A stretch of 41,498 nucleotides of DNA from Diploschistes diacapsis (Eukaryota), in assembly GCA_023645945.1 (NCBI GenBank), contig JALAIB010000047.1, positions 1 to 41,498 on the forward strand, in the 5' to 3' direction. The notes under the pieces were generated by a model. The model made no database searches. It was not told where the DNA came from and worked only from the letters and a program-made list of their open reading frames with translations. Positions 10,360 through 13,409 of the stretch are shown one piece after another. The position numbers were made by a program, and so were the translations under genes. The stretch's first letter is position 1, and the number at the start of each line of letters is the position of its first letter.

Positions 10360-11311
10360 TTACTGGTTTCCCCTCTCCGCATCCTCCGCATCGTTTTTCG
10401 GGACAGACACCATCTTCGGCACAGAGACAGCGTTGAGCTTCCGCATGGCCTATGATAACCAGGTTAGCAATCCGTGCAAACTTTACGCTTTCCAGCAGCT
10501 TCATTTAGGCGGCAGCAGTAGCAGCAGCAGCAGATGAGCGCCTCCACGCACCTCCCACGGCCGCGTATACCACACAAAGCTCCAGGCCCAAAACGCCCAC
10601 GCCTCGTACCACCGCAGCCACCACCAGGGACTCAACAGCTGGCTCAAGGAACTCACGTCTTTGAAGCTGCTCTCGGGCAGGTTTCCGTCCCACTTGTCCT
10701 CCACCTTGCTGATCTTGCCGGTGCTCTCGTTGTAGAAGATGAGAACCTTGCTGTCGATCACCTGCTCTTTGTTGATGCCCTTGACGACATAGCGAGTTTT
10801 GAGGTCCATCGCGATGGGGTTCCCCGCGGAGGTCACGGAGTGGTGCAGGCGCTCGATGTTCGAGAAAGCGGTTTGGAGGCCGTACTGCGTCTTCTCAGCA
10901 ACCATCGACCTCAAGCAGAACAACCAGAGGAGTCTTACCCATTGTGGCTCATACTTGGACCGCCCTAACAGATGAGTAAGCCGCCTGGACATGATAGGGA
11001 CTCCGGGGCCATCCTCAACCTTTTGCAACGGTAATTGGATCTTCAAAGGTAGCGTCATCCTCCCATAGCTGAAGCTTCTTCAGAGAAGGACGCCCGGCAA
11101 AGAGCTGGACAAAGGTCAGTTGCTGCATTTGCCTCCCTTGAAATGACTTGCATCTAGGACGGATCCAACCAAGGTCCTTTGTGAATCGTTCAGGCTCACA
11201 CCCGGGTTGGTCTTGATCTCGGTGTTCTCAATGTTTGCTTCTTCGGTACGATCAGCGACGCTCGTTTACTAGCAGGAGAAGACAAGACTGACCGGTGTGG
11301 CCGGTAGACAT
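10360..11311 (-). CDS. Uncharacterised small protein, probable SnoaL/NTF2-like fold, about 178 aa (short isoform), 6 exons
   Basis: Exons 11311-11293, 11240-11152, 11104-11020, 10964-10939, 10884-10657, 10449-10360 (537 nt, in frame). Sequence includes VGSVLDLFAGRPSLKKLQLWEDDATFEDPITVAKGR..YEPQWYGL...KISKVEDKWDG...AMRKLNAVSVPKMV. The DDATFEDP and EDKW pattern is typical of SnoaL-like proteins. Intron 2 is GC-AG. Confidence 0.75.
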
Positions 11312-11665
11312 CTTGCGTGATTGGCGTGTTAGAATTGGTGAATGGGAAGATACTGTATATTCGTAGGGCCGATATATATTTTTAAGGAATCTCGAAATCA
11401 CTGGAGAAGATGCAGAACGCATGAGGAATTGAAGGGTTTAATGTGCCTTTGAAAGCAGTATGTCTAGGTAGGATACTATGTACCTACGCAGAAACAGAAA
11501 CGCTATCGATGGTAATGATGAAAGCAACATAAAGTCATGACGCAACTGCCCATGCTGGCCTGTGTTGTACATAGTAGGGAAATGCCTCAAAGTCAGATTC
11601 CTTTAACAGAACCCATCATCACACCGACAAAGCTCGTACAAAACAGATGGAGTAGCAGTCTATTA

Positions 11666-12193
11666 CTAATTCGATCGTCCTTGCACATGGCCTGTAGTGG
11701 CGACTGTCAAGATCTCCTCCTCGAGGCCAGGAACATGCACAACAGAGACCCCATTTGCCTCAAGCCTCTGCCTGCCATGGTTGTGCTCCACAAACTTGTC
11801 TGGCTCCCAAACCCCAACATAGACGGTCTTGATGCCACCGTTGACCCCCCGTCTCGTGCGCAGGATCCTGTCGACACAGGGTGCGTTATCGCTGAGTCGC
11901 TTGCTGCATGGCTCCATCGTGGTGTACAGGACAGTCTTCTCTGGAAGATCCTGCAGCACTGCTTCTGCTTCTGCTTCTGCTTCAGTTCCCTGTCCATCGA
12001 CCTCGATAAGCTTCTGAAGGCAGCACTGCTCGGCATGCGTGTTTCCAGGGAGCTCCAGAGTGTAGCCCGTGGCCAGAACCTTGTCCCCTGCCTCGTCGAC
12101 GATCAGGGCACCAACCCGGAAATTCGTAGGCTTTGGCGGGGACTTGTAGGCTTCGGCAAGCGCGAGACGCATGTACTCGCGGTGCTTATCCAT
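11666..12193 (-). CDS. Cytidine-deaminase-like protein, probable DRAP deaminase (stand-alone Rib2 deaminase domain; riboflavin biosynthesis)
   Basis: MDKHREYMRLALAEAYKSPPKPTNFRVGA...GYTLELPGNTHAEQC...LYTTMEPCSKRLSDNAPCVDRI. Carries the Zn-binding HAE and PC..C motifs. First in-frame ATG at 12193. Confidence 0.8.
   Translation of the reverse strand: MDKHREYMRLALAEAYKSPPKPTNFRVGALIVDEAGDKVLATGYTLELPGNTHAEQCCLQKLIEVDGQGTEAEAEAEAVLQDLPEKTVLYTTMEPCSKRLSDNAPCVDRILRTRRGVNGGIKTVYVGVWEPDKFVEHNHGRQRLEANGVSVVHVPGLEEEILTVATTGHVQGRSN
11959..11983. repeat. (GCTTCT)n microsatellite encoding EAEAEAEA in the deaminase
   Basis: About 4 copies of the hexamer inside the CDS. Confidence 0.8.
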
Positions 12194-12437: not shown

Positions 12438-13409
12438 ATGGCTAAAGAAGAGCTTGAAAACATGGAGCCTCCAACCTCGATAGATCCGTATGCAACTTTG
12501 AATGTCGGTCTCACAGCGACCGCTGAAGAGGTCCGTGGCGCTTACAGAAAGCTCGCCCTCCGTCTGCACCCCGACAAAGCTGCCCCGGATGACCGCAACA
12601 AGGCACACCGGGCCTTCCAGGATCTCGCCTTCGCATACGCCATCCTCAGCGACGAACGCCGTCGCAAACGCTACGATGCTACGGGCAACACCTCGGAAAC
12701 TTTGGATCTGGACGACGATGACTTCAACTGGGGCGACTTCTTCCGCACGCAGTACTCGGAGCTAGTGACGGCAGAGAAGATCTCCGATTTCGAGAAGACG
12801 TACAAGAAAAGTGAGGAGGAGAGGCTTGATGTGCTGAAGGCGTACCGACAACGCAAGGGGAACATGAATGGGGTTTTCAACGACGTGATGCTGAGCAACC
12901 CTCTGGACGATGAAGACCGCTTCCGCGAGTACATCGATCGGGCAGTCGAGGGCGGAGAAGTCGAAGCTTTCAAGGCCTATGCCGAAGAGTCAGACAGGAG
13001 TCGCCAGGCACGCATGAAGAAGGCACAGAAGGAGAGGACAGAGGCCGAGGACCATGTCAAGGAGATGGGACCTAGCGCGAGGGGGAAGAAGGAAGGAGGC
13101 AAGAAAATCAAAGGAAAGACGGAAGACATCGGCGACCTTGCGTTGATGATCCAGCAGCGCAACGGACAGAGACGGGACAACTTTCTCGAAGGTCTTTTGG
13201 ACAAGTATGGCGGAAAGGGGAAGAAGAAGAGAGGCGCTCCTCCAGATCTAGACGAGCCGAGCGAGGAAGCGTTTGCAGAGATGGGAAGGAGGAAGAAGCA
13301 AAGAACTACGAAGAAAGACCAGGATGAGGCTGCCGAGCATGAGGGCGGAGGTCCGATAAAGAGATCGAAGTCTCCGAGGACCCGGAATGCTAGGAAGGCC
13401 AAGGCATGA
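12438..13409 (+). CDS. DnaJ-domain protein, DNAJC9-like
   Basis: J domain DPYATL...AYRKLALRLHPDK...FQDLAFAYAILSDERRRKRYDATG. Followed by W.DFFR, FEKTYKKSEEERLDVLKAY and DDEDRFREYID, then a basic NLS-like tail. Single exon. Confidence 0.88.
   Translation: MAKEELENMEPPTSIDPYATLNVGLTATAEEVRGAYRKLALRLHPDKAAPDDRNKAHRAFQDLAFAYAILSDERRRKRYDATGNTSETLDLDDDDFNWGDFFRTQYSELVTAEKISDFEKTYKKSEEERLDVLKAYRQRKGNMNGVFNDVMLSNPLDDEDRFREYIDRAVEGGEVEAFKAYAEESDRSRQARMKKAQKERTEAEDHVKEMGPSARGKKEGGKKIKGKTEDIGDLALMIQQRNGQRRDNFLEGLLDKYGGKGKKKRGAPPDLDEPSEEAFAEMGRRKKQRTTKKDQDEAAEHEGGGPIKRSKSPRTRNARKAKA

Follow-up and report, generated by a model that had tools for sequence, protein, structure and literature searches.

Can the last intron of a gene hold a piece of coding sequence that is kept in one form of the protein and left out of another? 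This question is raised by a gene for an NTF2/SnoaL-like protein of Diploschistes diacapsis, located in contig JALAIB010000047.1 and analyzed here within a stretch of 41.5 kb (the window). The gene comprises six exons, running from 11311 to 10360, and all its features lie on the minus strand. Its last intron includes two putative 5′ splice sites (donors), which delimit a stretch of 105 nucleotides (nt), hereafter the cassette, with a high density of tryptophan codons. An earlier note on this DNA had proposed that the cassette is alternatively spliced. We favor, with a probability of roughly 0.6, the reading that both donors constitute an ancient alternative 5′ splice-site pair which shares one branch site and one acceptor and gives rise to two forms of the protein, a short one that predominates and a Trp-rich long one of lower abundance, the choice of donor setting the membrane-bound share.

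Alternative splicing that is known to be both conserved and protein-altering is scarce in filamentous fungi, where most events are regarded as noise or as intron retention that leads to decay. Selection on both donors and on the optional segment across Pezizomycotina classes would make this gene a clean natural test case for regulated splice-site choice in fungi. The matter also has a practical side, as the GenBank models of the gene are split between a protein of 178 amino acids and one of about 212, at times within one species.

Two Donors and a Single Acceptor in the Last Intron

The upstream donor reads AAAGAC/GTGAGT (G at position 10656; the slash marks the exon end) and the downstream donor TGGGAG/GTGCGT (G at 10551). 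There is a single acceptor, TCATAG/GCC, with its final intron base at 10450, and a branch motif GCTAAC at 10468–10463. The four upstream introns of the gene measure 52, 47, 55, and 54 nt; the last one measures 207 or 102 nt, depending on the donor. As the two donors are in phase and share the acceptor at 10450, splicing would yield products of 178 and 213 amino acids, neither of them with an internal stop and both ending at the same stop codon. The 105 nt comprised between 10552 and 10656 are stop-free and translate as VSSLSQLLSPWWWLRWYEAWAFWAWSFVWYTRPWE, with 9 Trp in 35 residues. Reading through the whole intron gives a product that ends in ...VRGGAHLLLLLLLPPK, at a stop codon located at 10503–10501. 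The Leu run of this product is encoded by a CTG-rich repeat (10505–10539), which is not kept in related loci.

The product of 178 amino acids aligns without gaps to orthologue models of the same length (131 of 178 residues are identical in P0268), and the 213-residue product shares 156 identities, with one gap, with the 212-residue model P0014. When the six frames of the 41.5 kb were scanned for TGG codons, seven or more were present in 24 of 82,788 35-codon segments, and all 24 lie at the cassette locus. In 30 shuffled copies of the same sequence, the maximum per 35 codons was only 4–6.

The earlier note had described in-phase donors at 10656 and 10551 with the acceptor at 10450 and the branch GCTAAC, and every one of these sequence statements holds on the minus strand. 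Translation likewise agrees with its account of a stop-free 105-nt spacing with 9 Trp in 35 residues, and the intron lengths (207 nt from the upstream donor vs 47–55 nt for the other four) and the retention product stopping at 10501 (codon 10503–10501) are as it gave them. Its remark that such a TGG density is unusual within the window is borne out by the six-frame scan and the shuffled copies.

Conservation of the Cassette as Coding Sequence

Three protein searches, from which we kept the best 120 of 328, 644, and 898 matches, yielded 302 proteins. With exon 5 plus the cassette as the query, most of the best 120 of 328 proteins cover the query through ...PWE. The 302 proteins were sorted into 175 with the cassette, 109 short ones in which the domain is joined directly to the C-terminal tail, 13 that run into a short intron without cassette, and 5 that were left unplaced. 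The cassette opens with Val-Ser in 165 of the 175 proteins that have it. Named carriers belong to the Lecanoromycetes, the Coniocybomycetes (Chaenotheca, Sclerophora) and many Dothideomycetes, together with a member of Claussenomyces. A search for look-alikes of the cassette by means of a language model gave nothing useful (scores of 0.79 at most).

At the DNA level, a metagenome scan provided 110 confirmed loci, of which 80 were kept; with the window they make 81 sequences. The cassette is retained in 30 related DNA loci. In 22 unique loci the cassette contains no stop in its own frame, versus 13 and 12 stops in the other two frames, and in the aligned loci its length is of 34–35 codons, that is, a multiple of three. 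The ratio of nonsynonymous to synonymous substitution (dN/dS) was estimated pairwise by the Nei-Gojobori procedure for 12 chosen pairs, 9 of them computable and 3 with saturated dS. In frame, dN/dS of the cassette is below 1 in all 9 computable pairs (0.05–0.62), while the shifted frames give about 1–2, most of the values lying within 0.5–4. Pairs that include the cassette of the window have values of 0.33 (with locus L005) and 0.62 (with L004). Purifying constraint is weaker on the cassette than on exon 5. Substitutions within it are conservative, consisting of exchanges among W, F, Y, and L around a fixed S-P-W-W and W-S-F pattern.

These comparisons indicate that the cassette is conserved coding sequence under frame-specific purifying selection. 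The earlier note had expected orthologues to keep both donors, a length of 3n and the Trp-rich frame, with a cassette dN/dS below 1; this is what we find across several Pezizomycotina classes, dN/dS being below 1 in the cassette’s own frame only.

Conservation of the Two Donors in Related Loci

An anchor motif was present in 76 of the 81 sequences. Of these, 29 have an intact cassette and 2 a cassette with a single stop (L011 and L078); 31 have an intron at the same site without cassette (53–100 nt, and one of 191 nt); in 12 the domain is joined directly to the tail, and 2 are cut by the contig end. The five sequences without the motif are L031, with an intact cassette, L018, L025, and L032, which have stops also in exon 5, and L037, a variant without the Val-Ser start.

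The upstream donor doubles as the first two codons of the cassette, and its nucleotides can be compared with what the protein asks for. Among 23 unique loci with the cassette, ten have GTGAGT as the hexamer, ten GTAAGT, and one each GTCAGT, GTTAGT, and GTGGGT, which amounts to GTRAGT in 20 of 23. The Ser codon is AGT in all 22 unique loci that have Ser, the 23rd having Gly (GGT), whereas three conserved control Ser codons of exon 5 are AGT in 1 of 21, 2 of 20, and 7 of 23. Similarly, the Val codon is GTG or GTA (GTR) in 20 of 22 loci, GTC being the preferred codon at control Val positions. In the 31 cassette-free loci this site is the only donor; the hexamers of 27 unique loci of this kind (GTAAGT 12, GTGAGT 11, GTATGT 2, GTACGT 2) match the spectrum of the cassette loci. 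By this codon evidence, the upstream donor is conserved at the nucleotide level beyond coding need.

With respect to the downstream donor, GT follows directly after the last cassette codon, and in phase, in 20 of the 23 unique loci, with G at position +5 in 19 of those 20. The codon that follows the cassette end in the 20 loci is GTG in 19 and GTA in one. The donor occurs as GTGCGT, GTGTGT, GTGGGT, GTGAGN, GTAAGT, and GTGAAA, and the bases beyond it are not conserved. Taken with the frame-specific constraint, these patterns indicate selection on both donors as well as on the frame in which the cassette is read.

Transcript Evidence on the Short Form and the Proposed Long Form

A 412-nt contig of the X1 run (record 1), placed on the window at 85% likeness, has few mismatches to it. 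It includes three joints that correspond exactly to introns 2–4 of the gene, the GC-AG intron at 11105–11151 among them, and all three coincide with exon boundaries predicted by homology. As exon 4 measures no more than 26 nt, the short side of two of the joints is 25. This contig ends exactly at 10656, the last base common to the spliced and unspliced continuations; the end may reflect a fork in the assembly graph or low depth (4.3), and, as one contig of one run, it is evidence neither way.

Proteins without an NCBI source in our set are plain calls of open reading frames (ORFs) that read through introns, as does the window’s own P0001. One of them, the intron-free P0135, is encoded by a 1,215-nt contig and is identical in 180 of 180 aligned residues to the Paraconiothyrium brasiliense model P0074, but lacks exactly the 42 residues comprised between ...SIQN and AFRHLN, that is, from the upstream donor to the acceptor. 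In our reading, P0135 derives from an mRNA for which the upstream donor was used, the genome of the species having the cassette; it may, less probably, reflect a strain-level deletion. Further intron-free, short-form ORFs of Lecanoromycete-like origin (P0274, P0275, P0222, P0232) are 88–93% identical to cassette-bearing relatives. L070 and L073 are spliced copies of the genomic locus L046, which is cassette-free.

The 35 proteins with cassette and tail joined all have an NCBI gene model as their source, and 24 of the 109 short forms come from contig ORFs without one. Cassette and tail are joined in none of the 80 kept metagenome loci. A missing cassette transcript does not prove absence, because assemblies drop minor isoforms. 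The main mRNA probably encodes the short form. Gene predictors disagree even within a species: in Aureobasidium pullulans (P0212 and P0220 vs P0100 and P0103) and in Paraphaeosphaeria minitans (P0148, P0171, P0170), the annotations give the short, the long or the intron-retained product of the same gene, the shared part being 100% identical.

Loss of the Cassette in Several Lineages

When presence and absence of the cassette were mapped on a protein tree of exon 5 (44 rows, 76 columns, poorly resolved and with many open forks), 7 changes were counted, at least 2 of them forced by well-supported branches. Repeated loss is the simpler reading of this distribution, since the cassettes of distant clades are plainly homologous. 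Three cassettes are decaying: that of L011, which has the same 207-nt layout as the window, contains one TGA, that of L078 one TAA, and that of L060 is degraded. They look like intermediates of loss. Many lineages have lost the cassette and kept the upstream donor only, which makes the cassette dispensable. Such a loss would be harmless only if the upstream donor already works, a situation that fits alternative use in the ancestors.

Three metagenome contigs include extra, broken copies of the gene (L018:1501-1980, L025:1501-1980, L032:474-950), with stops at Gln and Trp codons. The three share a stop at the same Gln codon of ...GKEQ..., and the pattern resembles repeat-induced point mutation of duplicates.

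Predicted Fold and Possible Location of the Protein

The gathering cut-offs of Pfam are 27 bits for SnoaL_2 (PF12680) and 24.3 bits for DUF2358 (PF10184). Exon 5 of the window alone has no SnoaL_2 match in Pfam; orthologues score 16–24 bits against this profile, and one cassette-less orthologue 27.4. At E ≤ 0.01, SnoaL_2 is matched by 56 and DUF2358 by 26 of 62 relatives with the short form, most of these scores being lower than the curated cut-offs. The highest DUF2358 scores listed, 18.7–18.8 bits with a best E of 3e-4, do not reach the 24.3 bits of that family. The similarity to DUF2358, which includes the mammalian C6orf136/2310061I04Rik, is thereby a lead and not a membership, all scores being below the cut-off. 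A comparison of the sequence profile with the sequences of solved structures gave no real match.

For orthologues, AlphaFold2 predicts an alpha+beta cone with confidence, the predicted local distance difference test (pLDDT) score being 85.3 for the short form (P0268, 178 amino acids) and 72.6 for a long form. Foldseek retrieves limonene-1,2-epoxide hydrolase (LEH), the isomerases Dcr3 and NsrQ, and NTF2-like chains, with E of about 1e-5 and target-normalized template modeling scores of 0.6–0.7. The protein shares its predicted cone with the SnoaL/LEH-type NTF2-like enzymes, although its sequence scores are mostly below the gathering cut-off; we know of no Trp-rich insertion, nor of this conserved tail, in any of these relatives. 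The short-form model has the conserved tail following on from the domain without a break, and places the junction inside a short helix (145–154). In the long-form model the cassette forms two helices (158–175 and 178–194; pLDDT 53–64) that are detached from the NTF2 cone. Wimley-White sums for the cassette are −14.5 kcal/mol on the interfacial scale and −13.6 kcal/mol on the octanol scale. From these models and the composition, which is that of a membrane-seeking helix pair, we infer that the cassette may be an interfacial membrane-binding module.

A second feature bears on the location of the protein. An in-frame upstream Met followed by about 31–37 residues is present in some 30 distinct related loci, with 4–7 Lys or Arg, mostly no Asp or Glu, and many Ser and Thr. 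The extension is found also in intron-free contig ORFs (P0135, P0147, P0274, P0222, P0232). That of the window, MRSASSPVISRFLKNIYRPYEYTVSSHSPILTRQSRK, has one Glu. As the mark of a mitochondrial presequence we took 20–60 N-terminal residues that are translated, positively charged, free of acidic residues and rich in hydroxylated ones. The N-terminal extension resembles such a presequence, with the ATG at 11422 as the putative start. Because of this resemblance, a mitochondrial membrane would be the likeliest site of binding. The weak similarity to DUF2358 would fit with this, given that a mammalian DUF2358 protein is listed in MitoCarta according to bioRxiv 10.1101/2023.08.10.552737. A mitochondrial location of the SnoaL-like protein is hence plausible on sequence grounds. 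The earlier note had suggested lipid droplets as an alternative, a location for which we find no support, the mitochondrial-type extension pointing elsewhere. As the extensions are conserved, most GenBank models of the family may start too late, or two starts may be in use; most of these models begin at the second Met and so omit the probable presequence.

Weighing of the Alternative Explanations

The scheme that we propose is as follows. Use of the consensus donor at 10656 would remove 207 nt and give the short form of 178 amino acids. Use of the weaker donor at 10551 would keep 105 nt and insert 35 residues, 9 of them Trp, to give the long form of 213. Donor choice would in this way tune the membrane-bound fraction of the SnoaL-like protein, and the N-terminal extension would direct it to the mitochondrial membrane. 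What we infer here is the use of the downstream donor, which form is the major one in this organism, the membrane binding and the organelle.

Several observations weigh against this scheme. The X1 run, kept as contigs that make up a small share of it, does not cover 10450–10655 or the last exon, and 10450–10656 has no RNA cover in this organism. P0135 is the sole short-form contig tied to a cassette-bearing genome, and in principle its source could be genomic DNA from a strain in which the region is missing. Outside gene predictions, no transcript that joins cassette and tail was found among the 302 proteins (best 120 per search). The cassette portion of the structure models is of low confidence. 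The loci are related, and the codon counts are consequently non-independent draws, though synonymous sites are saturated between most pairs (usable dS in only 67 of 231 locus pairs). Finally, three loci lack GT at the cassette end, L006 and L013, which form one clade, having GGAGGT about 100 nt past locus position 1728, and L033 TTGAGT; all three cassettes are open. In them the cassette could be expressed by retention only, since the downstream donor is absent.

These three loci lead to the question of whether the cassette is in general expressed through intron retention, widely held to be the commonest type of alternative splicing in fungi, and not through a second donor. In the window, retention would give a product of 200 amino acids that ends in ...PWEVRGGAHLLLLLLLPPK, without the conserved tail. 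Retention is favored by L006 and L013, in which the cassette is intact and constrained (dN/dS 0.14) but no GT stands at its end, and by L006 and contig ORFs P0128, P0162, P0163, P0167, and P0241, in which the remainder of the intron can be read without a stop in the frame of the tail; in L006 the whole interval of 156 nt is open, and retention would yield the cassette, 17 residues and the tail. Retention alone, however, does not explain why, amid variable flanks, 20 of 23 unique loci have GT immediately behind the last codon of the cassette, 19 of these 20 also having G at +5, and the part that follows the cassette is conserved neither in length nor in sequence and meets an early stop in most loci. 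We regard retention as unlikely to be the general route, while it stays viable as a second one because L006, L013, and L033 keep the cassette open without a downstream GT. A little less likely is that the stretch is by now only intron in D. diacapsis, the short form being the sole product and the Trp frame the remnant of a coding cassette that has not yet decayed. Losses in many lineages, the single TGA of L011 in a shared 207-nt layout, the TAA of L078 and the failure to find a cassette-containing transcript from any species among the 302 proteins (best 120 per search) agree with such a remnant. Nevertheless, the cassette of the window is undamaged: its frame, with 9 Trp codons, is free of stops, the two donors are present and the phase is correct, and the pairs that include it still have dN/dS below 1 in frame (0.33 with L005, 0.62 with L004).

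The opposite case, that the cassette always belongs to exon 5, with the 10551 donor as the only one in use, an intron of 102 nt and GTGAGT at 10656 as mere Val-Ser codons, appears slightly less probable again. The cassette is clearly coding, and 35 NCBI gene models join it to the tail; yet a constitutive exon would not call for AGT in 22 of 22 Ser codons and GTR in 20 of 22 Val codons, unlike the control codons, nor for 31 cassette-free loci that splice at exactly the upstream-donor site. P0135, which is otherwise 100% identical to the protein of a cassette-bearing species, is without the cassette, loss of the cassette or a stop within it is tolerated, and gene predictors split both ways within A. 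pullulans and P. minitans. Very improbable, in our view, is the suggestion that the run of Trp codons senses tryptophan supply through ribosome stalling on the long or retained mRNA, and is not a structural segment. The TGG density is all that speaks for it; exchanges are conservative at the protein level and do not merely keep up the TGG count, and no upstream ORF or attenuator layout is present, the cassette lying in the 3′-terminal part of the coding sequence.

The alternative splice-site pair accordingly remains our preferred reading of the locus. The central claim of the earlier note, an alternatively spliced Trp-rich cassette, stands as far as conserved donors and frame and an upstream junction in the contig of one relative are concerned; the use of the 10551 donor or retention, for which no transcript turned up outside gene predictions among the 302 proteins (best 120 per search), and the switch from a soluble to a membrane-bound form are so far predictions. 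A wider reading can be put forward tentatively: the splice site would predate the divergence of Lecanoromycetes, Dothideomycetes, and Leotiomycetes-like lineages and have been retained from then on, and would toggle a mitochondrial NTF2-like protein between a soluble and an anchored state by means of a hitherto undescribed Trp-rich interfacial module, the ratio being regulated and the module repeatedly discarded where regulation was unneeded.

Gene Model and Neighboring Genes

The six-exon model rests on homology and on the one spliced contig described above (Table 1). The 47-nt GC-AG intron at 11105–11151 is an observation in its own right, its joint being present in the X1 spliced contig.

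TABLE 1. Coordinates of the SnoaL-like gene and of the elements of its last intron in the window.
Feature	Position	Strand	Remarks
Possible N-terminal extension	11312..11422	-	In-frame ATG 11422-11420 plus 36 more codons (37 in total), MRSASSPVISRFLKNIYRPYEYTVSSHSPILTRQSRK
Exon 1	11293..11311	-	ATG as in orthologue gene models (MSTGHT, then split codon); boundary by homology to orthologue N-termini, no contig cover
Intron 1	11241..11292	-	52 nt, GTCAGT..AAG; predicted only
Exon 2	11152..11240	-	X1 spliced contig covers 11152-11223
Intron 2	11105..11151	-	47 nt, GC-AG (GCAAGT..CAG); X1 joint 11104/11152, side 72
Exon 3	11020..11104	-	X1 contig and gene model
Intron 3	10965..11019	-	55 nt, GTTGAG..TAG; X1 joint, short side is exon 4
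Exon 4	10939..10964	-	26 nt; X1 contig and gene model
Intron 4	10885..10938	-	54 nt, GTAAGA..CAG; X1 joint 10884/10939
Exon 5	10657..10884	-	In all forms; second half of the NTF2/SnoaL-like domain, end ...SSFKD
Upstream donor GTGAGT	10651..10656	-	Doubles as cassette codons 1-2, Val-Ser
Trp-rich cassette	10552..10656	-	35 codons; intronic in the short form, coding in the putative long form
Downstream donor GTGCGT	10546..10551	-	Same phase as the upstream donor; putative, from sequence conservation
Intron part removed in both forms	10450..10551	-	Retention stop 10501-10503, CTG-rich repeat ~10505-10539, branch site GCTAAC 10463-10468, acceptor TAG 10450-10452
Last coding exon	10360..10449	-	AMRKLNAVSVPKMVSVPKNDAEDAERGNQ and stop codon; tail conserved family-wide

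The upstream neighbor, at 11669–12193 on the minus strand, is a gene of the cytidine/dCMP deaminase type (Inv-AAD 1.3e-51, dCMP_cyt_deam_1 5e-16). Two Teloschistaceae GenBank models of 343 amino acids (P0235, P0237) have a deaminase domain fused to the SnoaL-like family; since both are fused there, adjacency of deaminase and SnoaL-like genes appears to be conserved. On the opposite strand, 12438–13406 (+) encodes a J-domain protein of the DNAJC9 type (DnaJ 2e-19, HTH_DNAJC9 4e-24).

Comparison With Known Systems

Trp-rich segments that act at membrane interfaces exist in other proteins, such as the membrane-proximal region of gp41 of the human immunodeficiency virus and the Trp-rich antimicrobial peptides. 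The cassette is like them in its clustered Trp, Phe, and Tyr, its few charges and its favorable interfacial partitioning; there is no sequence relationship, and the analogy is one of composition only. With 9 Trp in 35 residues in the window copy, and a similar density in orthologues, this compact module might serve as a membrane-interface tag if its behavior is confirmed.

A literature search, mostly at the level of abstracts, found no paper on the cassette or on the splicing of this family. The closest systems are those in which alternative splicing of a C-terminal intron gives rise to compartment-specific isoforms in fungi, namely peroxisomal GAPDH of Ustilago maydis, PGK of Aspergillus nidulans and malate dehydrogenase of Yarrowia lipolytica, as given in PMC3798809. 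They have in common with the gene studied here that one gene has two splice choices close to the 3′ end of its coding sequence, that the isoforms share the catalytic or binding domain, that the variable element is short and serves targeting or anchoring (here by prediction), and that the arrangement is conserved across species. They differ in the nature of this element, which in the SnoaL-like gene is an internal, Trp-rich insertion of 35 residues and not a C-terminal tripeptide of the peroxisomal targeting signal 1 (PTS1) type, both forms keeping the tail. They differ as well in the event, which in the SnoaL-like gene is a predicted choice between two 5′ splice sites separated by 105 nt. Splicing of 3′ ends into differently targeted isoforms is a known strategy in fungi; the elements that appear to be new are the internal Trp-rich insertion, the selection on both donors, and a persistence across classes that is accompanied by repeated loss.

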